NCBI GenBank assembly: GCA_965215265.1
Contig: OZ244048.1
Span: 1,280,001 to 1,344,000 of the forward strand
Reading direction: 5' to 3'
Origin: Candidatus Poribacteria bacterium
GTDB lineage: Bacteria; Poribacteria; WGA-4E; WGA-3G
DNA: 64,000 bases
Below the pieces are notes generated by a model. That model was not told the origin of the DNA. It saw only the letters and a program-made list of their open reading frames with translations, and searched no databases. Positions 4,833 through 49,247 of this stretch are shown piece after piece; within the stretch, counting starts at the first letter, position 1; every line of letters starts with the position of its first letter. The position numbers were made by a program, and so were the translations under genes.

Positions 4833-5669
4833 ATGCACACCATCTACTCCACTTTGACAGAAGAAGAAAAGTGGTATTTTGATTTACACGGATTTCTCAT
4901 CTTACGGAATGTTATTCCTAAGGCTGAGGTTGGAGAGATGTTGAAGGTGCTTCGGCACTGGTTAACTATTGACGAGAGTGGTCTCCCATCTCCGTTAAAA
5001 CGGAGTCGACAAGAACCGTGCAAAACGCATCTTGATCATGTTCAATACGGGCATAAGTTGTTCGCGGAGCTCGCGATGAATCAGGAGCTTATGCGGGTCG
5101 TAGCAGGGTTAACGATGAACGCGCCGCGCTTGTTCCACTGTAATTTCACGATGATGACGAAACACGATTCGCCACAACATTTTCATAGGGATGATAGCGG
5201 TTTTAAGTTTCCCCCGGGGTTTCGCAATCCACATAACGATTATCAGGCTGCGGCGGGGCATATCTACTGTAGTCACATTGCGACGTGGGTTGCCCTCGTG
5301 GATGTGCCTCCGGGCACAGGTTTCTGTCTCGTTCCGGGCAGTCATAAATCTGAGTTTCCGATGCCGGTGCATCTGCCGGTGAAACATAATCCTCCGACAT
5401 CTATCACATTGCCAATGAATGCGGGTGATATAGCCATTTTTTCTACCAATCTTCTACACGATGCGAGTCCATGGACAGAGGAGTACCCCCGCATGAATAT
5501 CTTTCAACGTTATCAACTGAGTGCCTATTTCAATGAGTCGGGAAAGGGTGGGTACCCTCTTGACGAACATCGCCACAAGATTCCGGATGAGCAGTATGAA
5601 TTGGAATCACTCTCGAAAGACGTGAAAGCGGTTGTGCAGCGTATTTTACCAAAAGGAGGTAAAGAATGA
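4833..5669 (+). CDS. Phytanoyl-CoA dioxygenase (PhyH) family protein
   Basis: HRD iron motif, LVPGSHK, AGDIAIF, distal LLH. Confidence 0.85.
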   Translation: MHTIYSTLTEEEKWYFDLHGFLILRNVIPKAEVGEMLKVLRHWLTIDESGLPSPLKRSRQEPCKTHLDHVQYGHKLFAELAMNQELMRVVAGLTMNAPRLFHCNFTMMTKHDSPQHFHRDDSGFKFPPGFRNPHNDYQAAAGHIYCSHIATWVALVDVPPGTGFCLVPGSHKSEFPMPVHLPVKHNPPTSITLPMNAGDIAIFSTNLLHDASPWTEEYPRMNIFQRYQLSAYFNESGKGGYPLDEHRHKIPDEQYELESLSKDVKAVVQRILPKGGKE

Positions 5670-6454: not shown

Positions 6455-7495
6455 CTACCGGTAAATTGACGTTTGCGGATGATAACGTGCCCAAGCGAAC
6501 CAATAGATATTGACAGCAGGCAGCCGTTCTAAATATTCGCCTTTGTATTTGCCGGCAGTTGCCGCCCCGGTAATGAGGTTCCACTGTGTGCCGGAATCGT
6601 CTTCTGCTACATGGCCGTTTTGCGAGATAAAGGTTAGTAGCGTATTCCCTAACTGCCGCGTAAAGACTGCTGTTGCAAAAGAATCTGTGTCGTGAAAAAT
6701 TAACAACGGCACTTCATTCAAAGTATCGTTGATTAAAGTGGTTTCTGCAAACTGTGTGAGCGGATAGGCGCGATACCGGCTTTCTCCGTTTTTGTTCGGT
6801 ACTTGAACGCCGATGACGAGTGCTTTATTTGGGAGCCGGTCATCGGTGTAGTTCATCCCGCTCACGCCTGCGCGGGTACTGGCATGGTAGTCTGCGTAGA
6901 CATCTCGTTTTTTGCTTTCACTCGTTCTATTTCCCGACATGACAGATAGCACCTGTGTCGTCGGGTAATTCATCTGCCATGTTTTCCACGCAATCTGTGG
7001 CATAGCGGCAAGGGGTTTTAACCGCTTGCCCTTGAGTTCCCCTTGTATCGCTTCACCCGTAATGTGGGACCAGAGTGAACGGGTCTGATGATCGTACATC
7101 AAAAGTGCGTCTCGCCATAGTTTGCCGCTGACTCCGAACGTATAGGTTTTTCCTTCCAGTTCTCGGCTATACACGATAGCGGTTTTGCACAAGGGTCACC
7201 AGGTTGTGGCAATCTTCTGTCCACCGACAACGTCATTGACAATTTCATGCCCATTTAGCAGATAGAGGGAGTAGGCGTGGCTTTCCCCGTTGAAGCTAAC
7301 ACCGATAACAGGTGCAGCCGCGTCTAATTGTGCGTTCGCTGCAGGAACGAACTGTGGTTCAGTGATTGCCGGGATGGCATCAAACGGGAGCAGCGTCCGA
7401 ATCGCGTCCTTTGAATAATCGGTTACACTGCGTTCAGCGGAAGTAACAAATGGGAAAATGGACATTAGGAGTATGAGGAGGCTGTAGATTTTCAT
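6455..7495 (-). CDS. DUF3179-family secreted selenoprotein (Sec100, UPLC motif)
   Basis: ORFs 7196..7606 and 6455..7192 share a frame and are separated only by TGA (7196-7198) in ATTW-U-PLCKT, which matches the CPLC motif of DUF3179. Also DAIPAITEPQF, HEIVND and FGVSGKL...LLMYD..T.SLWS; signal peptide from ATG 7495. Confidence 0.85.
7166..7180 (-). promoter_or_regulatory. Putative bacterial SECIS hairpin
   Basis: GCUAU-CGUGU-AUAGC stem-loop starting 15 nt after the in-frame UGA, with G in the second loop position. Confidence 0.55.
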
Positions 7496-7679
7496 AAGAG
7501 TTCCTTTCGTTTTTCGACATAAATATGTTGAGAATAGCGGAAACGAGTTAATAACATTATACTTCAAGAGACTTAAGAGATGCAAGTTATACGCAGAGAT
7601 GGGCAAAACTATGTGACACCTGCAGGGCGAAACCGATTGATGAAGATAACCAGGCGTAAGAGTTTGCAGATGGCCCCGA

Positions 7680-10322
7680 TTAGACCTCCTCCGCAGTCGT
7701 CACGACTTGGTAATCCACGTTCAGGGCTTCTAGGAAATGCCGTTCACCGCATCGGATTTTATCGCTCTCACCCCGCCTAAGCTCCCCTACATCCGTTGTG
7801 CCTTTCGTCTCTCGCACTAAGTACAGCGTCTCACCCATCGATTCACCATGCGCATCACGCTCCTCTTTCACTATCGCCCAATCCGGATTATACGCACCTA
7901 TCGGCGTCGGAACGGTAAAGAACGCCGGAAGTTTGAGGTAGCACCGGATGTCATCCCGGTTTTCTAAACCCTTAACAAACTCGCGTTCTACCTCCGAATC
8001 ACATATCACCTTATCATAGACGCAACGCTTCGCCGGCACCAGATATTTCTCCCAACTTTCCAACTCGCAATCCAATTGGCACATCTCGTAAACTTCGCCT
8101 ATCTTCTCATATTTTATCCCCGCAATCAACTGCTCTCTAAGCTTCTCTCTGATGAGCCGTACCACAACCTTTACGAATTCAGGGGGATTGTCTATCGCCG
8201 CACGTTGCTGTTCAGTGCGCTTGAGGATTTCTAACAGCGTCGCGCGCGTCAACCGCAGCGGCGGCGTGGTATGCTCCAACCGATGCGCTATGTCACTCAA
8301 AACGTCCGAACGCCCCGATAACTGATAGGTAAAATGACTCTCCCCACTGTGCCGCCCCTCAAACCTCGTCGTTTCTTCATCAATCACCACGTCCCCTTTA
8401 CCAATTTTGAGGGTAGGCGCTAAAATCTTTGTTTCATCTAAGCCGGCGACAACGGCTCCAACTAATGCCTCCGTCTCAATCTCGACCTGGTATCGCGTCT
8501 TATGTTTTATCCGTTCCCACAACGTCTGAAACTCAGGCGTAAGCACTTTCATTTTGTCTAAGCGTGCGGTGTCCCGTTTTCGCGCATCCGCCGGGGTGGA
8601 CGAGTGCCCCACATCCCCTAGCTCCTCACGCACCTCACTTTGCAGCTGCTCTATGTAGCTCGTATAACTCTCGTTTGCGATGACAGTCAGCACATTGATG
8701 GACTCATCAGGAATCCGTTTACCCGCCTGATTCACCGCAAGCCGAACACCGCGCCCGATTTCCTGCCGTTTTTTCATCTCGGAGACAGTCTGGTTTAGCG
8801 TGCAAATTTGAAACACATTCGGACTATCCCAGCCTTCACGCAGTGCGGAGTGTGAAAAGATGAAGCAAGTCGGCTCATCAAACGAGAGCAGTCTCTCTTT
8901 GTCTTTCATGATGAGTTGATACGCCTCGGCATCTTTCTGTGCGTCTCCGGTTTTGCTATCTTCATAGACGACTTTCCCGCCCTTCCTGCTTTGGGCAAAA
9001 TAGGCGGCTTGCACATCCGCGGCACGCAGCGCTCGCCAGGCCGCAAATCCCGCCGCTTGTTTCAACTCATTGAAACATTTCTCAAACAGCTGACGAATGA
9101 TACCGGCTTCGCTGGCATAATTATCCACCTTATCAATAAAGAAGAGCGATAGCACCTTGATGTTATGTTCTCGGAGCCGCGCTTGTTTTCGAAAGTGCGC
9201 TTCTATTGTATACCGGATTTGCGCCTCAAAAATATCAGAGTTATCTGCCCCATGTGATTCGCCCGTTCTGATTTCTATACCGTTATCAAAGCGCACAGAT
9301 GCCCAGCTCAAGTCAATCTCGTTGACACGGTAGCCGCGATATTCCGGCAGATTTGTCTTGCGAACGGCTCCCAAATCATCTCCTGTTTTGACAGTGAGGG
9401 TTGTGCGTTTGACAGTGCCGCTCTTCTGCAGTTTATGAACTGCGAGCTTCGCCGTCACGCGGGTTTTCTGACTCTGAATGCTCTTGACTTCTATGAACGC
9501 CCGAGTTGTGTTTTCGCTCTTTTCAATACCCGCGACTTCTATCCGTTTGACTAAGCCTTGGCGATAGGCATCATAAGGTGTGAGGCGATAGACGCAATTG
9601 TAGAGATGCCGATGTGTGGCACTGTAGCGCAATGCGAAGAGCGGAGATAAGTTTGCCAACGATTTGAGGCTGAGGGTGCTTTCCATGTGCTGCGGCTCGT
9701 CTAAGATGAGAATAGGGCGCGCTGCTTGAATGAGGTGAATCGGGGTGTCGCCCTGCAGCCTGTCGGTGCGTTGCTGAATGATGTTAGTCGCTTTGTTGAA
9801 GGAGGCAAGCGTCATCACCAGGAACTCCACACTCCCCGAGAGTGCGAATTGCCGAACTTGCGAGAGATTCGCAGAATCGTAAGCATAGTAACAATAAGGT
9901 AGGTTCTGATATAAGTTTTTGAAGTGCGCCTCCGTCATCTGAAGGGTTTTCACCACGCCTTCACGAATTGCGACAGATGGCACGACAATAATAAACTTCC
10001 GCATGCCGTAATGTTGAAAGAGTTCCAGCGCGGTGCGTAAGTAGATGTAAGTCTTCCCGGTGCCGGTTTCCATCTCTACAGAGAAGTTTGGAAACTCCAT
10101 GGATTCTGTTAGATTAGCGTCAAGTGCATCGCCAATGAGCGGCTGAAGATTGGCGTTCAGTTGTTCTGGTTCTAAGTCAAGCCGGTTTGGTATAACGGCG
10201 GCGTGAGTGTCGCCACCGAATTGAAGGCTAACCTCAACGCGGGGCTGCCCTTCAAACAGCTTGATAACCGCATCTATTGCCTCCCGTTGGTAAGCTTGAT
10301 TGGCATCAAATTCAAACTGCAT
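7680..10322 (-). CDS. res: Type III restriction endonuclease subunit Res
   Basis: NFSVEMETGTGKT, ILDEPQ, SAT, SALREGWD, QEIGRGVRL helicase motifs; C-terminal YNPDWA...ETK nuclease motif. Confidence 0.95.
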   Translation of the reverse strand: MQFEFDANQAYQREAIDAVIKLFEGQPRVEVSLQFGGDTHAAVIPNRLDLEPEQLNANLQPLIGDALDANLTESMEFPNFSVEMETGTGKTYIYLRTALELFQHYGMRKFIIVVPSVAIREGVVKTLQMTEAHFKNLYQNLPYCYYAYDSANLSQVRQFALSGSVEFLVMTLASFNKATNIIQQRTDRLQGDTPIHLIQAARPILILDEPQHMESTLSLKSLANLSPLFALRYSATHRHLYNCVYRLTPYDAYRQGLVKRIEVAGIEKSENTTRAFIEVKSIQSQKTRVTAKLAVHKLQKSGTVKRTTLTVKTGDDLGAVRKTNLPEYRGYRVNEIDLSWASVRFDNGIEIRTGESHGADNSDIFEAQIRYTIEAHFRKQARLREHNIKVLSLFFIDKVDNYASEAGIIRQLFEKCFNELKQAAGFAAWRALRAADVQAAYFAQSRKGGKVVYEDSKTGDAQKDAEAYQLIMKDKERLLSFDEPTCFIFSHSALREGWDSPNVFQICTLNQTVSEMKKRQEIGRGVRLAVNQAGKRIPDESINVLTVIANESYTSYIEQLQSEVREELGDVGHSSTPADARKRDTARLDKMKVLTPEFQTLWERIKHKTRYQVEIETEALVGAVVAGLDETKILAPTLKIGKGDVVIDEETTRFEGRHSGESHFTYQLSGRSDVLSDIAHRLEHTTPPLRLTRATLLEILKRTEQQRAAIDNPPEFVKVVVRLIREKLREQLIAGIKYEKIGEVYEMCQLDCELESWEKYLVPAKRCVYDKVICDSEVEREFVKGLENRDDIRCYLKLPAFFTVPTPIGAYNPDWAIVKEERDAHGESMGETLYLVRETKGTTDVGELRRGESDKIRCGERHFLEALNVDYQVVTTAEEV

Positions 10323-10336
10323 CTCTCCTCTTCTTT

Positions 10337-10564
10337 CTCGTATCTGCTCGTAAAATGTTACCTTTTGGTAACATTTTCTTAGACTGCTTTTTGGTTGTGA
10401 GAACGGCCTGTAATTCAGTCACCGTGTGGGTTTTGAGGCGATTCGCACACGTTGTTTCCTCGTATCTCCTTGTAAAACGTTACCATTTGGTAACATTACC
10501 GGCTTGTTGTGGGAACGGCTAAGAAATCAGTCACCGTGTGGGTTTTGAGGCGATTCGCACACGT
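10337..10564. repeat. Two-unit tandem repeat (~112-122 bp) with palindromes, between mod and res
   Basis: Identical 38-mer TCAGTCACCGTGTGGGTTTTGAGGCGATTCGCACACGT at 10415 and 10527. Each unit also carries a GTTACC-N4-GGTAAC palindrome (11-bp arms at 10352-10377). Confidence 0.85.
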
Positions 10565-10623
10565 CATTTTTCGCAGAAAAAAAATAAATTGCAAAAAGTG
10601 TAACGTTTTCCATATGCCGTGTG

Positions 10624-12439
10624 TTAGATTGTCTTGAGTCTGCATTGTAGCGCCAGATTGGCGGCAAGCGTATCGGTTAGCGCGATATCTCGGCAGACAA
10701 ACACCGTCTCTTTTTCAAGCGGCAGCCGAACTATATCCGCAGGTGTGAGTTCGGCATCTAAACAGATGAGAAACGACTGCGCATCTCCCGGCGTGCTAAC
10801 CCGAACGACACGGTTTCTCTCAAGTCCTGCTACCCGTTCAAAAGTGCAGTTGAGGGGGTATCCCTCTTTGAGTGCGACTTCATAGAGCACATCCTCTTCC
10901 TGCCAGCCGGGGCGGAGGGGCTCCACGGTGTTCTCCAACTGTTGGATATAGATTTGCGGATCGTCGGTTTGGAGCGTCTCTTGTTCTCGATAGTTGGATG
11001 CTGCGAGTTTGAAGACGCGGAAGCCTGTGGGTGTGAGCATATTTTGACAGGCGCGGCGGATGCGTTCCTTACCGATTTGTGCGATGTCTTCAAACCCGGC
11101 GTTGCGTGCGGCAGATTTTTGGGGTGTGCGTTCAGGCAGCTGCACCATGATGAATTGGCGATTGCCGCCGTCTTCTTGATTGAGTTCCATAACCGCTTGT
11201 GCCGTCGTGCAGGAACCCGCAAAAAAATCTAAAATCAAATCGTCTGCGTCAGCCGCTATCTGCAAAAATAGTTTGATAAGTTTTACAGGTTTCGGATAAT
11301 CAAAAACGGATAGGTCTAATTTTTCTAAGTCACACCGCCCATCAGAGGTTAGTGCGATGTCAACCCATGAACGCGGCGTGAGTCCTTCTTTGTCTCTAAG
11401 AAACCTTTTCCTTTTTGGCTTTGAGTTACCGGTTTTACCCCACCAGATTAGATTTTCATTAACCAATTTTTGAAAATTTGATTTGGTATAGGTCCAGCAG
11501 CGTGTAAATTTTTTGTTTGTAGGCGAGACGATTTCATAAGTCCGTGTTGGATCGTTATCTCCAGTTCTCGTCAAGTCCGTTGAGGCCCATGGACCTCGGG
11601 GATCATTATCTGGGTTTTTGTATTCTGCCCGTTGTTTTTTTGTAAGTGGTTGAAATAATTGCCCAATATTTCCTACACTCCGAGCGTACATCAGAATATG
11701 TTCATGTTGTCTGAAAAATAATTTTGAATCAGCCCCGGCCCCAGCTTTTTTACGCCATACAAAACCGCCGATGAAATTTTCTTCGCCAAAGATTTCATTC
11801 ATCAAGAGGCGAAGATTATGCACTTCATGATCATCAATACTGACGAAGATGATACCGTCGTCCGTGAGCAGCTGGCGTGCTAGAAAGAGGCGCGGATACA
11901 TCATCGAGAGCCACGCGGAATGATAACGACCGCTGCGCTCCGGATTGCTGGTTAGCAGGTTGCCCTCGGCATCGCTCTGTCCTGACAGTTGGAGGTAGGT
12001 ATCTAACGGGTTAGCGTAGTTATCGGTGTAGACAAGGTCTTTGCCCGTGTTGTAGGGTGGATCAATGTAGATGGCTTTGATGCGTCCGAAATACGGTTTA
12101 TAGAGGAGTTTGAGGACTTCAAGGTTGTCGCCTTCAATGAAGAGGTTTGGGGTGTCCTTGAAGCGTAGCGATTCTTGTGTGGCTGGTTTTAAAGTTGCCT
12201 GGGTAGGTGTGCTGAGAATTCGGATGGCTTCGCGCTTACCTGCCCAATTGAAGTTATATCTCTCTGCGGTATCGGTTTGTTTCTGCTCTACCCCCCCCTT
12301 GATAATTGTTAAGTAAAGCGTTAAGTTTCTCGGTATCAAATGCGCCTTCGGACACACATTCAGGGAAGAGGGCCTTGAGTTCGCGGAGGCGTTCGTCATT
12401 TGCGGTGGTGGCAATGCTTTGGATTTTCTCTGTTTTCAT
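10624..12439 (-). CDS. mod: Type III DNA methyltransferase Mod, copy 1 (frameshifted at G8 tract 12291-12298)
   Basis: DPPY (motif IV) and DFFAGS (motif I) in beta-class order. The real N-terminus MKTEKIQS...LKALFPECVSEG (ORF 12254..12439) joins ORF 10624..12414 if the tract is G7 or G10 (~604 aa with G7). Confidence 0.9.
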
Positions 12440-12562
12440 CGGTGTGACTTTATGATTCGTCGACGCTATCTAGTGCAGCGTTAAGTTTTCGTAGTTTCAT
12501 AACTACAGCGGTGATTAGATTATCCGGATCGGACTGGATCCACTTTTGTGAACTGTTGTAGA

Positions 12563-12592
12563 ATTATAGCACAATTGCGGAAGGGAACGCAA
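12563..12592 (-). promoter_or_regulatory. Sigma70-type promoter upstream of mod copy 1
   Basis: TTGCGT-N18-TATAAT with TG extended -10 on the minus strand, in the spacer between the mod genes. Confidence 0.6.
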
Positions 12593-12620
12593 GGATAAAT
12601 CAAATTTAAAATGCCGTGTG

Positions 12621-14460
12621 TTAGATTGTCTTGAGTCTGCATTGTAGCGCCAGATTGGCGGCAAGCGTATCGGTTAGCGCGACATCTCGGCAGACAAACA
12701 CCGTCTCTTTTTCAAGCGGCAGCCGAACTATATCCGCAGGTGTGAGTTCGGCATCTAAACAGATGAGAAACGACTGCGCATCTCCCGGCGTGCTAACCCG
12801 AACGACACGGTTTCTCTCAAGTCCTGCTACCCGTTCAAAAGTGCAGTTGAGGGGGTATCCCTCTTTGAGTGCGACTTCATAGAGCACATCCTCTTCCTGC
12901 CAGCCGGGGCGGAGGGGCTCCACGGTGTTCTCCAACTGTTGGATATAGATTTGCGGATCGTCGGTTTGGAGTGTCTCTTGTTCCCGATAGTTGGATGCTG
13001 CGAGTTTGAAGACGCGGAAGCCTGTGGGGGTGAGCACATTTTGACAGGCGCGGCGGATGCGTTCCTTGCCGATTTGTGCGATGTCTTCAAACCCGGCGTT
13101 GCGTGCGGCAGATTTTTGGGGTGTGCGTTCAGGCAGCTGCACCATGATGAATTGGCGATTGCCGCCGTCTTCTTGATTGAGTTCCATAACTGCTTGTGCC
13201 GTCGTGCAGGAACCCGCAAAAAAATCTAAAACAATAGCATCCTTGTTCGCAATGAATTGGAGGAGGTGTTTGATTAAACCCACTGGCTTCGGATAATCGA
13301 ATATATGATATTCTTTAAATATTTCTCGTAGTTGTGTTCGCCCATCGCTGTTTCTTTCCACACCGGCTAAGAAACTTCGTAGAACTCTTTTAGATTCATT
13401 GAGGTAAAGTTTATATGCTATCTGCCATTCTTCGTTTTGATTTTTCATAAAAACAATCCTGCTATTTTCCTTGGCTTGAAGGAAACGTTTTTCTGACCAT
13501 CGCCACTTGTTCAGGACTGTTGAATTGTCAGGGCAGATGATTTCATACTGATGTCCCACATAACCGCCATATTGTTCTTGTGATTCAAATGGACGAGTTT
13601 TATAGGGGCCTAGCGTTGTATAATGCTCATCTTTCTCTGTATATGCCTCCTCCTCTTCTTGAGTTAAAGGTCGTCTTAATTTATCAATTGCTTGGAGATG
13701 TTTAGCGTAAGCGAGGATATATTCGTGGTCAGTCGCACAGTACTTAGCCTGATTCCCCGCCCCGCTGTGCCGCTGCCACACTAGCTGTTGCAGGCAATTT
13801 TCTTCGCCAAAAATTTCATTCATCAAAAGACGGAGATTGTGTACCTCATGATCATCAATACTGACGAAGATGATACCGTCATCTGTTAGCAGCTGACGTG
13901 CAAGGAAGAGGCGCGGATACATCATCGAGAGCCACGCAGAGTGATAACGACCGCTGCGCTCCGGATTGCTGGTTAGTAGGTTGCCCTCGGCATCGCTCTG
14001 TCCCGACAGTTGGAGGTAGGTATCTAACGGCTTGGCGTAGTTATCAGGGTAGACAAAGTCTGTGCCCGTGTTGTAGGGTGGATCAATGTAGATGGCTTTG
14101 ATGCGTCCGAAATACGGTTTATAGAGGAGTTTGAGGACTTCGAGGTTGTCGCCTTCAATGAAGAGGTTAGGGGTGTCCTTGAAGCGTAGCGATTCTTGTG
14201 TGGCTGGCTTTAAAGTGGCCTGGGTAGGTGCGCTGAGGATTCGGATGGCTTCGCGCTTACCTGCCCAATTGAAGTTATATCTCTCTGCGGTATCGGTTTG
14301 TTTCTGCTCTACCCCCCCCTTGATAATTGTTAAGTAAAGTGTTAAGTTTCTCGGTATCAAATGCGCCTTCGGACACACATTCAGGGAAGAGGGCCTTGAG
14401 TTGGAGGAGGCGTTCGTCGTTTGCGGTGGTGGTAATGCTTTGGATTTTCTCTGTTTTCAT
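12621..14460 (-). CDS. mod: Type III DNA methyltransferase Mod, copy 2 (frameshifted at G8 tract 14312-14319)
   Basis: Same motifs and same G8 frameshift as copy 1, but a different central TRD; ~612 aa with G7. Confidence 0.9.
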
Positions 14461-14512
14461 CGGTGTTACCTTATCAAGACAGCGTTATGCTGATGCGTAA
14501 GATCGCGCTACG

Positions 14513-19912: not shown

Positions 19913-19937
19913 TTCTTCCTATACTGAAACGATTATG

Positions 19938-20010
19938 CGCGCCTGGGAGGAATCGAACCCCCGACACGAGGCTTAGGAAGCCCCTGCTCTATCCGCTGAG
20001 CTACAGGCGC
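19938..20010 (-). tRNA. tRNA-Arg (anticodon CCU), CCA not encoded
   Basis: GCGCCTGTAGCTCAGCGGATAGAGCAGGGGCTTCCTAAGCCTCGTGTCGGGGGTTCGATTCCTCCCAGGCGCG folds as a cloverleaf with acceptor GCGCCTG/CAGGCGC, T-loop GTTCGATT and anticodon CCT. Confidence 0.95.
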
Positions 20011-40257: not shown

Positions 40258-41526
40258 CTAAGCGGCGTTGACTCTGAGAATATCTGCGCCGATGTTGTTC
40301 AATTTTTTCTCAATTGCTTCGTAGCCCCGGTCAATGTGATAGACACGCGAGACTACGGTTTCGCCAACGGCAGCCATACCGGCAGCCACTAATACGGCAC
40401 CAGCCCGCAAGTCAGATGCCATGACAGGGGCACCACTGAGACGCGCGCCACCGTGAATCAGGGCGCGCCTGCCATCCAGCATGATATTCGCGCCCATGCG
40501 GTTCAACTCGGCTGCGTGTATGAACCTATCTGTGTGCACCTTTTCAGTGATGACGCTGGTGCCTGTTGCGAGGCAGAGGAGCCCCATTAACTGTGCCTGC
40601 ATATCGGTAGGGAACCCCGGAAACGGCGCGGTTGTCACATCAATCGCTCTGAATTCTCTGGGTGTTGTGACTCGTACACCCGAGTCGTCCCAATCCAATT
40701 CCACACCCGCCTCAATGAGTTTCTCCGCGACAGCGGGCAGCTGCTGCGGTGTGATGCCTTTGACATACACATCCCCGCGCGTAATTGCTGCAGCTGCCAT
40801 AAAGGTCCCTGCTTCAATATCGTCGGATATGACGGTGTGTTCGGTGCCGCGTAACTGTTTGACCCCGTGGATTGTAAGTACGGAAGAGCCGATGCCCTCA
40901 ATATTTGCACCCATCGCGTTGAGAAACCGGGCTAAATCGCTGATATGCGGCTCGCGTGCAGCACCGCGAATAACGGTGGTTCCCTCAGCCAAAGTCGCCG
41001 CCATCATTACGTTGGCCGTCGCACCGACACTCGGCCCGTATTGTCCAGTGAGGTACATTTCTGTTCCACGCAGCCGTTGCGCTTGCGCATAGATGTACCC
41101 CTTTTCCACCTGCACGTCTGTACCTAAGTTCTCCAAGCCGCGGATGTGCAAGTCTATCGGCCGGGGCCCAATCGCGCAGCCACCGGGGAATGAAACTTTG
41201 GCACGCCCGAGCTTTGCGACAAGCGGACCTAAGACATAGATGGACGCACGCATTTTCCGGACGAGCTCATAGGGCGCCTCATACTCCAGATGGTTCACCG
41301 GCTCAATATAGAGTGTCGATTTTTTTAGTTTCGTTGATGCCCCAAGACCTTCAAGCACTGCACATAGTGTTGCTACGTCTGTTAAATTTGGCACATTGTG
41401 AAGTACGCTGACACCATCCCCGAGAATCGCAGCCGCGACTGCGATAGGGAGCACAGCGTTTTTGCAACCGCTTACCGGAATTGTACCTTCAAGCCTTGTT
41501 GAACCCTTGACAATTAATTTTTCCAT
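40258..41526 (-). CDS. murA: UDP-N-acetylglucosamine 1-carboxyvinyltransferase
   Basis: KNAVLP, RKMRAS, PGGCAIGPRPIDLH, PGFPTDMQ, DLRAGA, IDRGY. Confidence 0.97.
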   Translation of the reverse strand: MEKLIVKGSTRLEGTIPVSGCKNAVLPIAVAAAILGDGVSVLHNVPNLTDVATLCAVLEGLGASTKLKKSTLYIEPVNHLEYEAPYELVRKMRASIYVLGPLVAKLGRAKVSFPGGCAIGPRPIDLHIRGLENLGTDVQVEKGYIYAQAQRLRGTEMYLTGQYGPSVGATANVMMAATLAEGTTVIRGAAREPHISDLARFLNAMGANIEGIGSSVLTIHGVKQLRGTEHTVISDDIEAGTFMAAAAITRGDVYVKGITPQQLPAVAEKLIEAGVELDWDDSGVRVTTPREFRAIDVTTAPFPGFPTDMQAQLMGLLCLATGTSVITEKVHTDRFIHAAELNRMGANIMLDGRRALIHGGARLSGAPVMASDLRAGAVLVAAGMAAVGETVVSRVYHIDRGYEAIEKKLNNIGADILRVNAA

Positions 41527-41711
41527 TTTTCATTCTCCTACGGATGCTTGCAATTTTAGACCACTATTGGTAAATCTTAACGACTAAAGATGGGGGCTTA
41601 CCAGAAATGAGTCTATTTCCTTGTGAAGAATCAGGAGCTGCCAACGAGATTTACTCCGCACTTACAGCAGCATAAAACATCATAGTACTGAGTTATTCTA
41701 AAAACCTCTAT

Positions 41712-41727
41712 TGCATAAACGATGCCA
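41712..41727 (-). promoter_or_regulatory. Putative sigma54 (-24/-12) promoter upstream of murA
   Basis: Minus strand reads TGGCATCGTTTATGCA (GG-N10-GC). Confidence 0.55.
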
Positions 41728-41780
41728 AACCTATCTTTGTTACAAATATAGTGGTACAAGGCACGTAAACATTTTCGGGT

Positions 41781-41798
41781 TGTGTCAAAATAGACACA
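41781..41798. promoter_or_regulatory. Palindromic operator / bEBP upstream activator site
   Basis: TGTGTC-AAAATA-GACACA, about 80-100 bp upstream of the predicted sigma54 start site. Confidence 0.5.
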
Positions 41799-41964
41799 TG
41801 TTATTTTACCATTCTTTTGAAATCACATTACCTCTTGTCTTAGTGGAAACGCGACAGCCCTTTTTTCGCTCGCTATCAAACAGATAAGCAGAATTCATTT
41901 GCACTAAATCGGAATCTTTGATAAAATCTAATTTCAATTTCTCTCATTTTATGAGGTAAAGCAG

Positions 41965-43017
41965 ATGGCAGACAAAACATATCGTATCGGAATTATCGGT
42001 TGTGGCGGTATGGGGCGTTCTCATGCCCGGAATTGGACAAGCACCGGCCGGGCAGAAGTTGTGACTGCATCAGACATCAGTGCTGATTCGGCTGCAAAAT
42101 TTGCTTCGGAGTTATCGCTTCCGACACACTATACTGATTTTAACGAGATGTGCGAGAAGGAAACGTTGGATATCGTGAGCATCACGACCTGGCAGAGCGT
42201 GCGTGCAGAGCCAACTATAGCGGCTGCCGAGAGCGGCGTTCTCGGTGTAATCACTGAAAAGCCGATGGCCGCATCGGTAGGTGATGCACAGGACATGATG
42301 GACGTTTGCGAGAAACATGGCACAAAACTTGTAGTTGGACATCAACGCCGGTTCAGCCCGCAAAACTGCGAGGCCCGCCGACTGATACAAGAAGGCGCAA
42401 TCGGCGAACCCCAAGCGATGCTCCGGCGAGATGGACACGGTTTACTGAATCGCGGCACGCACGAAATTGACGAGATGCGCTACATCCTTGGAGATCCAGA
42501 GCCGCTATGGCTCATCGGGCAGGTCGCACGCCGCACAGACCGGTGGGAACGGCGGGTCCGATGCGAAGATCTCTGCATGGCTGAAATCTGCTTTCAAGGC
42601 GGGATCCGCGGTATTTACGAAAGCGATTTGCCAGAGCCTGCACTGCGCGGGGATGTTGTTTACGGCAACGATGGGCAACTCCGCCGGGGTAGTGACGGCA
42701 CAATTGAACTGCTCAACAGCAAAGCATCTGGATGGCAATCGATTAAACCGCGCCAGAGTGAACCGAATCAGTTTGACGAGATGTTAGCCTGGATAGAAGG
42801 CGATATCGACGAACATCGGAACGCTGGCAAGCACGGACTCTGTACAATAGAAATTCTGATGGCGATTTATGAATCGCTTCGTATCAAAAATGTGGTGACG
42901 TTCCCACTAACGACGCGGCCGAATCCGCTGGATCTGTTGGTTGAAGGCGGAACCTTGCCGGTGTTTGTTGAGGGACGCTATGACATTCGCGCACCGTTCC
43001 CCGAACAGAAAAAGTAG
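41965..43017 (+). CDS. Gfo/Idh/MocA oxidoreductase
   Basis: IGCGGMG, EKPMA, GHQRRF, GTHEID. Confidence 0.88.
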   Translation: MADKTYRIGIIGCGGMGRSHARNWTSTGRAEVVTASDISADSAAKFASELSLPTHYTDFNEMCEKETLDIVSITTWQSVRAEPTIAAAESGVLGVITEKPMAASVGDAQDMMDVCEKHGTKLVVGHQRRFSPQNCEARRLIQEGAIGEPQAMLRRDGHGLLNRGTHEIDEMRYILGDPEPLWLIGQVARRTDRWERRVRCEDLCMAEICFQGGIRGIYESDLPEPALRGDVVYGNDGQLRRGSDGTIELLNSKASGWQSIKPRQSEPNQFDEMLAWIEGDIDEHRNAGKHGLCTIEILMAIYESLRIKNVVTFPLTTRPNPLDLLVEGGTLPVFVEGRYDIRAPFPEQKK

Positions 43018-43049
43018 CGGTGCCACAAATGATGAGATGCCCCCTTTAA

Positions 43050-43074
43050 GGGCAGGCTTCCGAGCCTGCCCTGC
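43050..43074. repeat. REP-like GC hairpin between convergent genes
   Basis: GGGCAGGCT-TCCG-AGCCTGCCC. Similar hairpins, some preceded by GTAG, occur near 30728-30759 and 51713-51742. Confidence 0.55.
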
Positions 43075-43477
43075 CTTTGCTGAATTGTTCCTAAACTTAG
43101 ACGCTAATCCGCTTTTAGCACGTCACCTCTTTTCCTTCGCTACCGTAAACCGCCATTCGTTCGGCGGTTGTTATCTCCTCGCAACTCCCAGGTTTGTAAT
43201 GAAACTGGAGCGCACGGCGACGGGCACTCGAATGGTTAAACGGGCTACCATAGTCATGCACCACTACCATGATGGTAACTTATGAGGTGACGTGCTAATG
43301 ATTTTCAGGAATATCCCCAAAGTTGTCTGAACCGCTCGCTTTTCTTAACCCCTAACTATACGAAAATTTTTGTCTACTGCAGCCCCATGAAGGTTGCTGT
43401 AATGTTCAATCCACTATAAATCTCGTCAAAGCCTTTTGATGTTTTGATTTTTAAAGACATTACCTAAGGAGTCTCCG

Positions 43478-43597
43478 ACGAGATTTACACACGAGTACTC
43501 ACGACATAAGCGTTGACGGTACGGAGAGATACGAAAAACGAGATTTACACAGGAGTTTCCAAAACATAACCCTTGATGGTACGGAGATATACAAAAA
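43478..43597. repeat. 60-bp tandem repeat (2 units); third diverged unit inverted at ~45974..46033
   Basis: Units begin ACGAGATTTACAC and share ACATAA.C.TTGA.GGTACGGAGA.ATAC.AAAA. Confidence 0.85.
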
Positions 43598-43947
43598 AGC
43601 GTACCAAATGATGCTTTTTGGGGAGATAAGATGTACAATTTGTCTCATCTAACATTTTTCACCTCTAAAACGACTTATTCCGTTATTTTTTGTTAAATGT
43701 GAAAAATCACGACGGTATTCACAGATTTTTAGGTACGCAGACAGAAAAATGAAAAAAAATTGTCCAAATTCCTAAAAATTCTGAAAAAAGTGCAAATTAG
43801 GTATAAACTTTTTTGATCTCATCTTTATACATAACTATAGAACAGAAAAAAGAAAAGACATTCGTATTGTGATTTAGTTGTTGTTTACACAAAAGTGGAA
43901 GATGTGGTAAACTCACCCATGTCTTTCGTAAACGAAGGAGGTTTCTG

Positions 43948-44490
43948 ATGAACCGTTTCTTTTCTTACGCGATACTTTTTATCGCCATGCTCTGTGTAGG
44001 GCTGAGTTTTGTCTCAACGCACACCGAAGCCGCACTTGACATTCATTCAGGTTATGCTAACGACGTGCTCTCTCCGCAAGGTGACGAGCTGCCCTATACT
44101 TACGGTGAAGCCGTGGTAGAGAGTATGTGGACGAGTGGGCGTTGGGCGTATAGCACACACTCTATCTTCATCGGCAACTACGCTGGAGGCCCGTTTGGCC
44201 CACAAGATATTGACTTTGATGTTACCTACGTCTGCGAAATCAGGGGTACTAATCGTTTGGAGAGAGTTTTCGAGCAGTCGGTAAAAATCTTAGCGCCTTA
44301 CTATGACGTTGGTTGGGTAGATGCAACCTGGTCCGACAGCAACCGACAACTGTCTGTGCGGCGGGATGGGCTCCCTAATGAAGAGTACACTTTTGCCGCG
44401 TATACCGAACTTGATGCGAGAGATGCCGCTCGCGTTCGGGATTCAGCGACATGGCGGGCAGAATATTTAATCATAATTAATCCGTTTTGA
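43948..44490 (+). CDS. Secreted hypothetical protein
   Basis: AAGGAGG RBS, signal peptide ending TEAA, 180 aa rich in aromatic residues. Confidence 0.75.
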   Translation: MNRFFSYAILFIAMLCVGLSFVSTHTEAALDIHSGYANDVLSPQGDELPYTYGEAVVESMWTSGRWAYSTHSIFIGNYAGGPFGPQDIDFDVTYVCEIRGTNRLERVFEQSVKILAPYYDVGWVDATWSDSNRQLSVRRDGLPNEEYTFAAYTELDARDAARVRDSATWRAEYLIIINPF

Positions 44491-44553
44491 TGCCTTGAGA
44501 TGCCACACTTGAGGGGGAGCTCGCTCCCCCTCTCACCGCATAAGGAGATTCGT

Positions 44554-45576
44554 ATGAAACTTTTTTTCGCCCTGATGTTCGTGTTGCTTTTTGCTGCAAC
44601 CGCATCTCCAAAAATTGTGTTTTATTCCGAGCGTGATGGCAATAAAGAAATTTACATCATGAATGATGATGGCAGCCACCTTCGCAGAGTCACGGACAAT
44701 CCCGCGGCAGATCTCCGTCCCTTATGGGCACCAGATGGACAGACCATCGCATTCCAGCGCGGTAGCTACACACCGGACGGTAGACAAGTCTCAGATCTTA
44801 TCCTCATCAACCCAGACGGTAGCAACGAGAGAACTTTAGTAAACAACGATGAAGCGTTTTCGTCTGTGTATCCCGCTTTTTTCATGCGAGAGGGAAGGGA
44901 ACTTGCAATTGCCAGATGGGACCTGAACGCGCTCACTTTACGGCTTTTCTTCATGGATGTTGAAAGTGGTGTGACACGCCCACTCCGAGGCGTTGAGGAT
45001 ATAACAGATGCAGACATCTCCCCAGATGGCCGTTTCATCGCCTTTTCAAAGACACCGAGCTTTGAAAAGAACATCCACCTCGTCGCACCAGATGGACGCG
45101 GAGAGAAACCCCTCCTGCCACCTAATGCAGACCCCGATGTCCTACTCCTTCGCTTCTCTCCGCGCTGGGCACCGGATAGTAAACGCCTGATGTTTGTTGA
45201 AGAATGGCTTGATATTGTAGAGAAGGAAAACGAAGAGGGCCCTTTTATTGACTTTGTTGTCACAGAAAACAACCTGCTCATCTACCACATTGGCTCGGAA
45301 AAGACAGAACGCTTGCCGCTCCCACACGGGTTTCGCACGGCGACATCTTGTTGGATGAACAATAACCAGATTCTCTTTGCCGCAGATACCACAGGTTTGA
45401 TAACTAAAGTGCATGGCAACTACGACATTTACCACTACAACCTTACAAGTAGAACGCTGACGCAGCTCACCACACATACTGCAGCAGACAAGTCTCCTCG
45501 ATGGATAGCCGGCACGCTTGAGGTGTCTGCAAAACAAAAAAAAACAACGCAGTGGGGAAAAGTGAAGGCCGACTAG
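44554..45576 (+). CDS. TolB-like (PD40 beta-propeller) secreted protein
   Basis: AAGGAG RBS before MKLFF; KIVFYSERDGNKEIYIMNDDGS, WAPDG, SPDG repeats; tail VSAKQKKTTQWGKVKAD. Confidence 0.85.
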   Translation: MKLFFALMFVLLFAATASPKIVFYSERDGNKEIYIMNDDGSHLRRVTDNPAADLRPLWAPDGQTIAFQRGSYTPDGRQVSDLILINPDGSNERTLVNNDEAFSSVYPAFFMREGRELAIARWDLNALTLRLFFMDVESGVTRPLRGVEDITDADISPDGRFIAFSKTPSFEKNIHLVAPDGRGEKPLLPPNADPDVLLLRFSPRWAPDSKRLMFVEEWLDIVEKENEEGPFIDFVVTENNLLIYHIGSEKTERLPLPHGFRTATSCWMNNNQILFAADTTGLITKVHGNYDIYHYNLTSRTLTQLTTHTAADKSPRWIAGTLEVSAKQKKTTQWGKVKAD

Positions 45577-45584
45577 ATTGATAG

Positions 45585-45683
45585 ATGAAGAGTACACTTT
45601 TGCCGCTCGCGTTTCGGATTCAGCGACGTGGCGGGCAGAATATTTAATCATAATTAATCCGTTTTGATGCCTTGAGATGCCAC
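45585..45683. repeat. Direct-repeat copy of 44378..44506 (3' end of the 43948 gene) with a 30-bp internal deletion
   Basis: ATGAAGAGTACACTTTTGCCGC|TCGCGT...GAGATGCCAC; the deletion lies between TGCCGC micro-homologies. Confidence 0.9.
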
Positions 45684-45960
45684 TCGTTTTTTAAGAGCAC
45701 CGCGCCGGTGCTCAGAAACAGCAGTATGTTCAGAAAAATCAAGTAGGCCAAATCCGAGAAAGTACCGCCGATAGCGGCGTTTCCCCACGCAGTGCCACTG
45801 GTAAAGACAGGCATGCCACTTAAGTCCAGCGGTTCCACGTCACTCCAATTTTTCGGTGTGATGTTTGCTATAAAGGCATCTTCGTCTGACTTTACGAATC
45901 CAGCTTGTGAGGGCATATCGTTGATATTGACTCGCGTGAACCAGTTGCTACTTGAGAACG
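45644..45960 (-). pseudogene. C-terminal fragment of an ABC-2-type permease-like membrane protein
   Basis: PLDLSGMPVF...DLAYLIFLNILLFLSTGAVLL tail with no N-terminal part; abuts the right inverted repeat. Confidence 0.45.
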
Positions 45961-46212
45961 CCCCTTGTTCCTGCTTTTTGTATATTTCAGCCCCATCAAC
46001 GCTTAGGTATTGACAGCCCGTGTGAAAATCTCGTCGGAGACTCCTTAGGGAATGTCTTTAAAAATCAAAACATCAAAGGCTTTGACGAGATTTATAGTGG
46101 ATTGAACATTACAGCAACCTTCATGGGGCTGCAGTAGACAAAAATTTTCGTATAGTTAGGGGTTAAGAAAAGCGAGCGGTTCAGACAACTTTGGGGATAT
46201 TCCTGAAAATCA

Positions 46213-47072
46213 TTAGCACGTCACCTCTTTTCCTTCGCTACCGTAAACCGCCATTCGTTCGGCGGTTGTTATCTCCTCGCAACTCCCAGGTTTGTAATGA
46301 AACTGGAGCGCACGGCGACGGGCACTCGAACGGTTAACCGGACTGCCATGATGGAGTAAGCCGTGCCAGAAGAGACAGCCACCCGGTTTGAGAGGCACCA
46401 TCGTATCGCGTGCAACTGGGACATCTGTATCGCAAATCTGCCAATCGCGCCGTTTGAAATGAATCCTGGGACCCTCATTATGAGAACCCGGGATGATGTG
46501 CAGGCAGCCGTTTTCAGGCGTGGCTTCGTCAAGCGCTACCCACACCCCTACGACTGTCGTGCCGAAAGGGACATTAAAATAGGCACAATCCTGATGCCAC
46601 GGCTTTTCAGAACCGAATCGTGGCGGTTTCACTAACGCCATATCCTGGAAAAGTTCAGGTGCCTCGCCCATCATTTGTTCAAGGGTACGAAGCAGTCCTG
46701 CATGTGCTGCCATGGCGTTCAAGCGAGTTCATGATCAACAAATCGGAAAATTTTTCGGATTGCATCCCGACGTTCATCAGGGGCCATCTCGTTTTTACGT
46801 TTGGCGAGAGACGGTTCAAATTGGATTGCCCGGAAATCAGGACAGTTTCCATCCATCAGATAAACCATACCAGCCAAAGCGTCATCAACTTCCTTTTCAC
46901 TAAAGGCATCGTGGATGACGAGATAGCCGTGCTGATGGAAGTGTTGGATGTCAGCCTCGGTTACGGCTGAAAATCCACCACGCATCCCTTCTGCTACTGT
47001 ATCAAATCTATAAAGTTCCGCAGGATAAGGGATGGCTGATGTACTCTGTTCGCTTGCTGCTTCGGAATTCAT
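46213..47072 (-). CDS. Phytanoyl-CoA dioxygenase family protein, frameshifted near 46727
   Basis: ORFs 46719..47123 and 46213..46722 join if one base is added (VDHE[P]RLNAMA); KPWHQD, NGCL..IPGSH, LHHGS; ~286 aa. Confidence 0.82.
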
Positions 47073-47303
47073 AAAATACCTCCCAGTGGATTGTGAGTAA
47101 AAGGGAAGGGAAGTTCTCCCCACAAGCAGGGAGGAATCCCCTTTCTTTTCTGTCCTGACGGACAGAAAAAAAATACCTATCTTGCAACTTTCGGCTGTGT
47201 TAGTGATACTGCCAATGAATCAAGACGGAATGCGCGTATGGCATTCGACTCACCTGAATTTTGGTGTCGCTATCTTACTGACTCAACATTATAAGCTGCA
47301 TCC

Positions 47304-48317
47304 TTAGATCTCACCCCGGCTCTCCTGTTCAAGCAGGTCTAAGAAATCGTTAACGCGGTTAATAGCTGCTTGGGCACGTTCGCGGGCCGATTGACTTTTC
47401 TCTTCTTCCGACAGCCAGCACCGTCGTTGCGGAAGCCATTCCGTTTTTAGAGAACTAAGTTGATTTAGAAAATGCGGGTCCGCTGTCTCACTAACAAAAT
47501 ACTCTATCACACCGAGTAACCCGTACTTCCGATTTACCTCCATATCCTCTAATTCACCTACCATGTGGGCAAAGAGTTGTTGATTCCTATCCTGTCTTGC
47601 TTGTGCAACCTCACGTGAGGAAGCGGTAAGCAGTTTATCTACAAATTCCTGCTTAGAGTTAATCCACCTCGGTAGGTTCCTGACGTAGTCTTCCAAATCG
47701 AAATGCCCCCGCTGCAGCGCGAAGTGAGCATGGATATGAATGTTACGGAAGAACGCCGTATATCCAACATTTGGATCCATGGTATCCGCATCATAGAGAA
47801 TTTGATTCTCAATGTTCCCATATAGAAGTTTAAAATCTTCGGCAGTCAGATTCATCGGTTTTAGATGGGCCAACACAACGGCTGTTGCGGCTTCCACGAA
47901 CTCGCGCTCAAAGTCGTACATCGCCAATATATTTTCCGTAATCACAGCACCGGACTCATGATGCACTTTTCCATGGAGGTTGTGCTTATTGTACAGTTCA
48001 GTAACGACGTTCTGTCCACTTGGAGTGAGCACCTCGTTTAACCAGAAGCCGTTGTGGTCCAAAATCCGCTTGCCGTTGTCGTCTGTTAAGATGACACCGT
48101 CGTAACGTTTGGTGATGTCATGTAACGTCCCAGCGACTTCAAGTAACTTGACATCACCACCCTCACGTTTTCCCAGTTCCATGCTCAGCGCACGGACGCG
48201 GAGCGTGTGGTTCCAGGTATAGTGCCGCCATTGAAAGCCGACGCGGTTGTGTTCCCAGAGTTCAAACGTTTCATTCACTAAGGTTTCCAATTCATTCAAA
48301 ACTTGAGCGTAGTTCAT
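47304..48317 (-). CDS. HD-domain protein
   Basis: WNHTLRV, LHDITK, HHESG, LYDAD. Confidence 0.8.
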   Translation of the reverse strand: MNYAQVLNELETLVNETFELWEHNRVGFQWRHYTWNHTLRVRALSMELGKREGGDVKLLEVAGTLHDITKRYDGVILTDDNGKRILDHNGFWLNEVLTPSGQNVVTELYNKHNLHGKVHHESGAVITENILAMYDFEREFVEAATAVVLAHLKPMNLTAEDFKLLYGNIENQILYDADTMDPNVGYTAFFRNIHIHAHFALQRGHFDLEDYVRNLPRWINSKQEFVDKLLTASSREVAQARQDRNQQLFAHMVGELEDMEVNRKYGLLGVIEYFVSETADPHFLNQLSSLKTEWLPQRRCWLSEEEKSQSARERAQAAINRVNDFLDLLEQESRGEI

Positions 48318-48455
48318 ATTTGAATGTTTTTAACCTCCTGTTTTCAGAGACTTTCTCGCCGTTGTCGTATTTTTAAGCACCTTTGCTAAGCGGTAATTGC
48401 CGCAGTTCTCCTATTAGCGATTTCGAGTCTTGAAGTTAGGCGAACCTCAGCCAAT

Positions 48456-49247
48456 TCATGGCTTATTGCCGTATGTGACGCGAATGAGTGACAACCCGTG
48501 CGCAGGTACCGACGGCCCAGCCGCTGCCCGATCCTTTGCTTTGATGATCCGACGGAGCTCCGCTGGCACGTTTTCGCAATTCACATATTTGAGTATCGTG
48601 CCGACAATAGCCCGAACCATCCCTCTCAGAAAGGAGTCTGCCTCAATTTCAAAATAGACGTGTTCGCCTGCCTTCCAGCAAGCTGCCTCATAAATTTCAC
48701 ACATAGGATTTAAACGATCGCTTCCAGTTCTTCGGAAAGCGGAAAAATCCTGTTTGCCTACAAGGTTTGCGCACAGAGCGTCAGCTCGCGAAATATCAAT
48801 AGTTTGTGCCGGATAGAAGTAACACCTATGGCGCGACAGTGCGGACGGATACGCACGATTCAAAATTGTATACCGATACCGCCGGCTTGTCGCACTGAAA
48901 CGAGCGTGAAAGTCCGACGGCACCTCCGTTGCTGCAAGGATAACTATATCCCTTGGCAGAATAGTATTGAGCCCTTTCTGAAAAGCGACAAGAGGTATCT
49001 CCGGTCTCGCATCTATTTTTTCTTTCTCACTCCCCACAGTAGTCTGTGCTAGATGGAAGTTAGCAACTTGCCCTTCAGCGTGAACACCTGTATCAGTCCT
49101 ACCAGCCCCAATAATTTGGACACGCGTTTTGGTTAACTTGCTCAGCGCATCCTCAACGGTGCCTTGAATTGTTGGCTGGTTAGGTTGTTTCTGCCATCCG
49201 TGATAATTGGTTCCGTCATATTCAAGTACCAGTTTGATGTTCCGCAT
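48456..49247 (-). CDS. truA: tRNA pseudouridine(38-40) synthase
   Basis: YDGTNYHGWQ, AGRTDTGVHA, FHARF, FLRGMVRAIVG. Confidence 0.96.
   Translation of the reverse strand: MRNIKLVLEYDGTNYHGWQKQPNQPTIQGTVEDALSKLTKTRVQIIGAGRTDTGVHAEGQVANFHLAQTTVGSEKEKIDARPEIPLVAFQKGLNTILPRDIVILAATEVPSDFHARFSATSRRYRYTILNRAYPSALSRHRCYFYPAQTIDISRADALCANLVGKQDFSAFRRTGSDRLNPMCEIYEAACWKAGEHVYFEIEADSFLRGMVRAIVGTILKYVNCENVPAELRRIIKAKDRAAAGPSVPAHGLSLIRVTYGNKP

Follow-up and report, generated by a model that had tools for sequence, protein, structure and literature searches.

A repeat-framed islet at the 3' end of phyH in Candidatus Poribacteria and its possible origin as a recombination scar

By what route did two genes for secreted proteins come to lie beside phyH, framed by direct as well as inverted repeats and unaccompanied by any recognisable recombinase gene? 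The question is raised by a 64,000-nt stretch (hereafter the window) of Candidatus Poribacteria contig OZ244048.1 (4,833,177 bp and thus of chromosome scale), part of assembly GCA_965215265.1, whose record is that of a metagenome-assembled genome. In the window, an islet of ~3.1 kb separates a Gfo/Idh/MocA oxidoreductase gene (Gfo) from a convergent phyH-family dioxygenase gene (Table 1). A previous description, made by a model from the DNA letters and referred to here as the sequence-only reading, had seen in it either a non-autonomous cassette mobilised in trans or the remnant of tandem island integrations. Our comparison with related loci shows an insertion that occurred in this lineage, and we consider it moderately probable that the islet is a lineage-specific recombination scar in an insertion-tolerant spacer and not a dedicated mobile element.

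An insertion at the 3' end of phyH

A search of genome contigs with the Gfo protein yielded 80 related loci, totalling 1.47 Mb, which served as the comparison set. The named records among them belong to Poribacteria, save one from Zixibacteria and a few labelled 'uncultured bacterium'. None of the 80 loci is identical to the window, and Poribacteria orthologues of Gfo reach up to 95% identity to the window protein. The closest relative (L001) shows 82-84% DNA identity across murA, Gfo, phyH and the HD-domain gene. For 50 of the 80 loci, the flanks retrieved include phyH as well as Gfo, and these 50 are the base of the site counts.

Direct convergence of Gfo and phyH, with 53-262 bp from one stop codon to the other, is the arrangement in 44 of the 50, which corresponds to the empty-site alleles that the sequence-only reading had suggested looking for. 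In the window, the Gfo stop codon lies 97 bp from the stop codon of an orphan phyH 3' end (named P') and 3195 bp from that of the live phyH. Because the 97-bp gap fits the range of the empty sites, P' and its spacer represent the ancestral 3' end and the islet represents an insertion. The ancestral state was Gfo, a short spacer and phyH in convergent orientation, and in this lineage ~3.1 kb was inserted 137-139 nt ahead of the stop codon of phyH. Beside Gfo, the final 137 native nt of phyH and the native spacer were left as an orphan, and a second copy of the 3' end closes phyH. The suspicion that a replacement 3' end had been supplied to phyH is thus borne out, with the left copy sitting at the native 3'-end position. 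The insert itself is a patchwork with several local direct and inverted duplications.

The six other relatives are occupied between Gfo and phyH, with gaps of 1270-2925 bp filled by unrelated inserts. L077 has a gene for a DDE-type transposase there, and L024 an IS630-like gene bounded by 40-nt terminal inverted repeats. Small secreted proteins are encoded in L011, WD40-repeat proteins of ~830 aa in L004 and L009, and LRR proteins together with a 340-aa open reading frame (ORF) in L033. The Gfo-phyH spacer appears from these sequences to be a general insertion hotspot and not an att site. Duplication of the phyH 3' end was found in none of the six occupied relatives and in none of the 50 relatives with both genes, and the inverted-repeat arms described below were absent from the six.

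The direct repeat pairs 43115-43251 with 46213-46349 (137 nt, 97% identity). Its first 118 nt are exact, as had been described from the letters, and its last 19 nt carry four mismatches, two synonymous and two non-synonymous (GSPFNH vs GSPVNR). In gene orientation the mismatches are C/T, T/C, G/T and G/A and are not adenine-specific, and the 19 diverged nt of P', which are true phyH sequence, are identical to the L001 phyH at 17 positions. Extending the homology of P' across the adjoining 32-nt filler with gaps was rejected, since 358 of 500 shuffles score equally well; against phyH of the 50 relatives the filler has a mean identity of 0.28.

The inverted repeat is 100% complementary over 153 nt (43284-43436 vs 46075-46227) and reaches 254 nt in a gapped alignment (43284-43537 vs 46227-45975). 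Its outer ~210 nt hold one 1-nt indel and two mismatches, which are the three differences counted previously, and its inner ~45 nt fall to ~60% identity. Window-wide, two inverted-repeat pairs of >=30 nt were detected and both correspond to these arms. A second direct repeat, which the sequence-only reading did not mention, lies within the islet, where the 3' end of the first cargo gene, ORF1 (44378-44506, 129 nt), is copied at 45585-45683 with 3 mismatches and with 30 nt deleted between two TGCCGC hexamers. The three young repeat pairs, with 0/118, 3/210 and 3/99 differences, may all date from about the same time.

The last 15 nt of phyH, TTAGCACGTCACCTC, occur three times in the forward/reverse/forward order reported before, at 43115 (+), 43284 (-) and 46213 (+), with no further match in the window at <=2 mismatches. 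None of 100 shuffles reached three matches, and the three copies are not independent, as the direct and the inverted repeat overlap at precisely these 15 nt. The C-termini of phyH in the relatives read E/D-V-D-C or A-V-E-C, vs E-V-T-C here, and the 15-mer is therefore lineage-specific. A conserved site was ruled out: at <=3 mismatches, 30 matches were found in the 1.47 Mb vs ~36 expected, and none stood at a phyH end of the relatives.

The arms were searched by blastn against the 80 loci with word size 9 and then 7. No homologue was found there for the arms, for the filler or for the stretch that separates the propeller gene from the right arm, and the 64-kb window holds no arm copy outside the islet. 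Likewise, motif GACGAGATTTA is absent from the 1.47 Mb of loci and occurs three times in the window, always inside the arms. The region 43018-46349 had no match in plasmid and phage DNA collections (blastn, distant mode). A protein search with a 70-aa ORF of the left arm gave no candidate, a result that is uninformative, as this ORF was probably never called as a gene. The arms were also rejected as structured RNA, with a single unrelated sub-threshold Rfam match in 41000-48500 and fold z-scores of -1.8 and -0.08.

Other repeats were seen around Gfo and phyH in the relatives. Only one inverted repeat of >=60 nt at >=90% identity was found in the 1.47 Mb. It lies in L010 (9250-9401 and 18585-18735; 152 nt, 97%, arms 9.2 kb apart) and brackets Gfo. 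One of its arms adjoins a PD40 propeller gene, itself preceded by a gene for a 286-aa secreted protein, and a long tandem array with a 33-nt period occupies 9451-9843 of the same locus. In L006 and L053, two near relatives as judged from Gfo identity, very large secreted proteins are encoded downstream of Gfo instead of phyH. Dispersed G+C-rich repeats of ~60-120 nt cluster around Gfo in both (8800-11620 in L006, 1100-19100 in L053), and a 119-nt repeat pair (92%) flanks Gfo in L006. The closest relative, L001, carries a 998-nt tandem direct repeat (12288-14466, 96%) between phyH and the HD-domain gene, and therefore the neighbouring spacer is variable too. A 7-nt tandem repeat (GTTATCR; CAGCAAT-like on the other strand) stands directly 3' of the phyH stop codon in L003, L005, L013, L026, L051, L067, L071 and others, and has no counterpart downstream of phyH in the window.

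Contents of the islet and relatives of its cargo

The islet holds two intact genes, three gene fragments and five 60-nt units (named u). ORF1 belongs to a family of 18 proteins in the protein collection, and its full length aligns with 16 of the 17 other members. Its predicted structure is a beta-sandwich (predicted local distance difference test, pLDDT, of 80.5) for which the best PDB matches are weak beta-sandwich matches only, with a TM score of 0.39 or less. The second gene encodes a PD40/TolB-like beta-propeller protein that matches TIGR02800 partially and below its cut-off. The coding part of the cargo has a G+C content of ~0.50, like the flanks.

An additional frame, 'ORF90' (45644-45916, minus strand), is not a gene. 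It reads through into the orphan ORF1 3' end (F2), and residues 32-97 of its extended version match the far C-terminal ends of ABC-2-like permease-family members that are 215, 256 and 545 aa long (whole-library phmmer, 8 matches). A tblastn comparison of residues 94-213 of protein P0141 with 45973-45683 supports this homology (E = 4e-16), which starts exactly at the edge of the right arm and stops two codons short of the usual stop of the family.

The five islet copies of the 60-nt unit, also unmentioned in the sequence-only reading, stand in tandem and inverted order, with one inverted pair per arm and u2 next to the left arm. Islet positions 43537-43689 align with the murA-Gfo spacer (41643-41807) at a score of 58, compared with 28-30 +/- 4 and a maximum of 48-49 for shuffles, and the murA-Gfo spacer of L001 holds an orthologous u-like unit. 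For these two reasons, the unit is native to that spacer and the islet copies are its paralogues. The two copies of spacer sequence are only ~60-65% alike. Within the native spacer, 41705-41808 is kept in most relatives.

The murA-Gfo spacer also houses relatives of the cargo. In L019 it contains the remnant of an ORF1-like sequence, 42% identical over residues 101-173, as well as a PD40 gene that is 59% identical to the islet propeller in protein and 70% in DNA over 1037 nt, with neither arms nor 15-mer. In L007 it contains an 80-nt PD40 remnant that is 85% identical. Based on these two loci, the gene pair is native to the clade and resides in the murA-Gfo spacer of at least two relatives. 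The spacer-like DNA upstream of the islet cargo fits transfer of the genes together with their surroundings, not a cassette with defined ends.

The phyH gene itself is interrupted, which had likewise gone unmentioned. Alignment with L001 and L007 places a missing base near 46722-46726, all relatives are in frame, and Pfam PF05721 matches only the C-terminal of the two resulting ORFs. The gene is probably a pseudogene, or else the deletion is a consensus error. The proposal that every rearrangement of the islet would leave phyH intact thus becomes moot. A second PhyH-family gene is found in the window at 4833-5669.

Table 1. Features of the islet and its flanks (positions in the window)
Feature	Position	Strand	Remarks
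Native murA-Gfo spacer	41643..41807	+	Original 60-nt u unit (41643-41703) and conserved spacer element
Gfo/Idh/MocA oxidoreductase, left flank	41965..43017	+	Pfam PF01408, E = 2e-24
Native Gfo-phyH spacer, 97 nt	43018..43114	.	G+C-rich hairpin GGGCAGGCT/AGCCTGCCC; ancestral empty-site spacer
P', displaced orphan phyH 3' end	43115..43251	-	118 nt equal to the live copy, then 19 nt of diverged phyH
Junction filler, 32 nt	43252..43283	.	No phyH homology; one hairpin arm, the other arm in the end of P' (43246-43258)
Left inverted-repeat arm	43284..43537	+	Reverse 15-mer, 68 nt, inverted u (43367-43427), ~50 nt, u1 (43478-43537)
u2, tandem second 60-nt unit	43538..43597	+	Tandem Repeats Finder: period 60, 2.0 copies, 81% matches
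A+T-rich region upstream of ORF1	43598..43947	+	G+C ~0.31-0.36; first ~90 nt murA-Gfo-spacer-like; promoter-like site 43884-43913
ORF1, intact secreted beta-sandwich protein, 180 aa	43948..44490	+	Signal-peptide-like N-terminus; no Pfam or NCBIfam family
PD40/TolB-like beta-propeller, intact, secreted, 340 aa	44554..45576	+	Pfam PF07676, E = 6e-17; signal-peptide-like N-terminus
F2, orphan ORF1 3'-end copy	45585..45683	+	Duplicates 44378-44506 minus 30 nt
X, ABC-2-like permease-family fragment, C-terminal ~120 aa	45683..45973	-	Cut at both ends
Right inverted-repeat arm	45975..46227	-	u unit, ~50 nt, inverted u, 68 nt, last 15 nt of phyH
phyH-family dioxygenase	46213..47123	-	1-nt deletion near 46722-46726; two ORFs, 46719-47123 and 46213-46722

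A recombination scar as the preferred reading

We propose that DNA of a related Poribacterium could have entered by recombination anchored in phyH 3' homology, the donor being a relative with ORF1 and the propeller gene in its murA-Gfo spacer, as in L019 today. Entry may have taken place by homology-facilitated illegitimate recombination or by single-crossover integration of a circle, and both of these would leave the anchor in two copies and move the old 3' end away. Subsequent local events would have copied the ORF1 3' end and the 254-nt arm, by template switching, by recombination of the unequal or illegitimate kind and perhaps by gene conversion. Because the near-identical tracts stop abruptly against sequence of 60-80% identity, at least two rounds of events are needed, a duplication followed by allele exchange or conversion.

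Displacement of 3' ends by homology-facilitated illegitimate recombination was proposed for orphan 3' regions in type VI secretion system (T6SS) effector-immunity arrays and Rhs loci (PMC5361080). In that scheme, incoming DNA is anchored in a resident gene and the old 3' part is pushed downstream as an orphan, with no need for a dedicated recombinase (PMC5361080). The same is seen here, where the orphan phyH 3' part lies distal to the insert at its native position (97 nt from Gfo). Unlike in the T6SS and Rhs examples, the anchor is a metabolic dioxygenase in place of a polymorphic toxin, the piece that was displaced measures only 137 nt, with 118/118 identity to the live copy, an extra 254-nt inverted duplication is present, and the case is single.

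Two other known types of rearrangement share part of this geometry. In complex class 1 integrons, ISCR1-associated DNA is flanked by a second, incomplete copy of the 3' conserved segment, which is explained by homologous integration of a circle. The islet resembles them in being bounded by direct copies of a resident 3' segment, as single-crossover integration would leave them. Unlike these integrons, it has no ISCR, IS91 or integron integrase among the ORFs scanned with Pfam, and paired R''/R' cores (attC) were not seen at the junctions by eye, no attC model having been applied. Replication template switching provides the other comparison, through inverted triplications and through tandem inversion duplications (TIDs) such as those of Salmonella; origin-dependent inverted-repeat amplification (PMC4689423) is a related precedent. 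The islet is similar in that a shared segment, the 15-mer and its neighbours, is arranged direct/inverted/direct and in that duplications cluster within a few kb. It differs in that its copies are non-contiguous, have no common segment boundary and enclose unrelated DNA, and in that its junctions lack short inverted repeats that would explain the turns.

Several points weigh against the scar reading. Its weakest part is the requirement for two rounds of events. The exact 118-nt tract adjoins four mismatches in 19 nt, a pattern that is predicted by neither of two simple schemes, reciprocal crossover and anchored insertion of DNA from a diverged donor, and that needs an extra step, gene conversion or later allele exchange. 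Gene conversion between repeats that are ~79% identical should be inefficient. The direct and the inverted near-identical tracts both abut the same 15-mer, which fits a break or a site-specific cut at this point, and inspection by eye revealed no clear microhomology at 43251/43252 or 43283/43284. Phylogenetic discordance is likewise lacking among murA, Gfo, phyH and the HD-domain gene, L001 being closest (only 82-84% nt) throughout, so that an import marked by discordance was ruled out. Finally, the uniqueness of the arms covers the 64-kb window and the 80 loci, not the remainder of the 4.83-Mb source genome.

Today the islet could be changed only via host homologous recombination, either by a 3098-bp loop-out across the 118-bp repeat, which restores the empty site, or by a 2.4-kb flip across the 210-bp arms. 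The flip of the inner 154-bp piece, which the sequence-only reading also envisaged, would have to pass through 15 bp; a repeat of 15 bp is too short for a RecA substrate, and there is no evidence for the dedicated enzyme that such a flip needs.

If the scar reading is correct, the islet would illustrate, on a small scale and with good resolution, the way in which genomes of uncultivated sponge symbionts acquire secreted-protein genes and rearrange them at permissive convergent spacers, via anchored and illegitimate recombination and not through dedicated elements. As such, the locus is a fresh example of a known event type, the recombinational insertion scar in a variable spacer. It also cautions that an att-like geometry or one resembling terminal inverted repeats (TIRs) need not mean mobility. 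The spacer comparison (44 empty sites and six filled with insertion sequence, WD40, LRR or secreted-protein DNA) should be useful for the annotation of Poribacteria accessory genes. The locus would gain much greater weight if its arms proved multi-copy with different cargo.

Alternative origins and neighbouring genes

Genomic islands of the tRNA/tmRNA type integrate into gene 3' ends and bring a substitute for the end that they interrupt, which yields an attL/attR geometry. The islet could accordingly be read as a decayed site-specific island, whose tyrosine or serine recombinase would have acted on the phyH 3' end and which would have supplied a replacement for it; attL and attR would then be the 118-bp repeats, later deletions would have taken away the integrase with most of the genes, and an internal inverted duplication would have followed. 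We find this unlikely, though the remnant of island integrations suggested in the sequence-only reading keeps some probability. Like such islands, the islet is flanked by direct repeats of the target 3' end, phyH is re-closed by one copy, and the diverged 19-nt phyH extension sits on the inner side of the distal repeat, where an element-borne attP extension would be expected. The gene fragments also fit heavy decay. However, no integrase, resolvase, invertase or transposase family was detected with Pfam in the 10 islet-region ORFs or in 45 other window ORFs (>=110 aa), in agreement with the sequence-only reading. The relatives have no island at this position and no phyH 3' duplication (0/50, and 0/6 among the occupied sites), their 15-mer and phyH 3' ends are too poorly conserved for this protein-coding target to serve as a shared att site, and the DNA upstream of the cargo comes from a neighbouring spacer and not from an element backbone. 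What the islet holds, gene fragments and two genes, also differs from a typical island. As for other targets, a tRNA or tmRNA gene was ruled out, as the only tRNA in the window (19937-20010) is 23 kb from the islet.

The trans-mobilised non-autonomous cassette of the sequence-only reading, in which the 15-mer and arm form a recognition end for a recombinase or transposase encoded elsewhere in the genome, is quite improbable. The long terminal inverted repeats with near-perfect outer parts would suit it, as would the three cores in direct/inverted/direct order, the start of both identity tracts at the core, and the presence of cargo relatives in a different spacer in L019. Yet the L019 cargo has neither arms nor core, and no additional copy of the arms or of the u motif turned up in the window or among the 1.47 Mb of loci, so that the further arm copies with other cargo or a linked recombinase that the proposal anticipated were not found in that material. 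The core is simply the end of phyH, near-matches to which are at chance level in the relatives (30 vs ~36). No target-site duplication stands beside the inverted repeats, whose left flank reads ...AACTTAT and whose right flank reads TTTTCCT...; the flanking 15-mers do not qualify as one, because they belong to the inverted repeat. The bulged hairpin noted earlier at ~43246-43277 does exist (-8.5 kcal/mol), but it is not significant (z = -1.13; 31 of 200 shuffles fold at least equally well), and it was dismissed as a recombination signal.

Some further mechanisms were rejected on the same structural data. A TIR transposon was ruled out by the missing target-site duplication, and intramolecular replicative transposition would be incompatible with two 15-mers that both adjoin the same arm end and both lie outside the arms. 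A tandem duplication from the murA spacer to phyH followed by reciprocal deletions does not explain spacer copies ~60-65% alike vs phyH copies identical at 118/118 positions. A diversity-generating retroelement (DGR) was ruled out, as the mismatches are not at adenines and no reverse transcriptase domain was found with Pfam in the same 10 and 45 ORFs. No title bearing on this locus was noticed among those seen from the Poribacteria mobile-element literature.

An assembly artefact, in which a chimeric or mis-joined metagenome consensus made the repeats, is very improbable. The source record is a metagenome-assembled genome, the exact 118-nt and 153-nt repeats end abruptly, and consensus errors might be suspected from the phyH frameshift and from the in-frame stop of a second gene. 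On the other hand, the structure sits mid-contig in a sequence of 4.83 Mb, a size that speaks against a mis-join of short-read repeats; the contig was probably built from long reads, which would span the 3.2 kb concerned. The repeats also make coherent biology, with a phyH extension diverged at the codon level, intact cargo with relatives, and a 30-nt deletion between hexamers.

It is highly doubtful that the 15-mer at the phyH stop is the crossover core of an undescribed recombinase-free cassette system, cut by a recombinase encoded elsewhere, although this would explain why the 118-nt direct and the 210-nt inverted near-perfect tracts both start at the 15-mer and why the copies follow a direct/inverted/direct order. 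If true, secreted-protein genes would be inserted, flipped or lost at gene ends with the frame of the target undisturbed.

A programmed invertible segment, a phase-variation switch that flips the cargo between the 254-bp arms to change secreted-protein expression, is scarcely credible: inverted repeats do flank two secreted-protein genes, and a flip would make ORF1 and the propeller gene co-directional with phyH and downstream of it, but ORF1 retains its own upstream region and promoter-like site in both orientations, no invertase domain was found in the window ORFs scanned, no related locus has comparable arms, and in the invertons known to us the arms are far shorter.

Elsewhere in the window, the in-frame stop mentioned above interrupts a DUF3179 gene (6455-7606) as a TGA at 7196-7198 (...T-T-W-stop-P-L...), with the two halves matching profile positions 2-64 and 67-292; nonsense mutation, consensus error and recoding of the stop are the three readings of it. 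At 7680-14378 follows a type III restriction-modification locus, composed of res (7680-10322) and of mod in two tandem copies (10624-12414 and 12621-14378). These copies have near-identical 5' and 3' parts (625 nt at 98.7% and 679 nt at 94.7%) and differ in the middle, presumably the target-recognition region. The segment 26593-30744 encodes eukaryote-like repeat proteins (FG-GAP with ankyrin, and TPR) and includes an FGE-sulfatase gene, as expected of a sponge symbiont.

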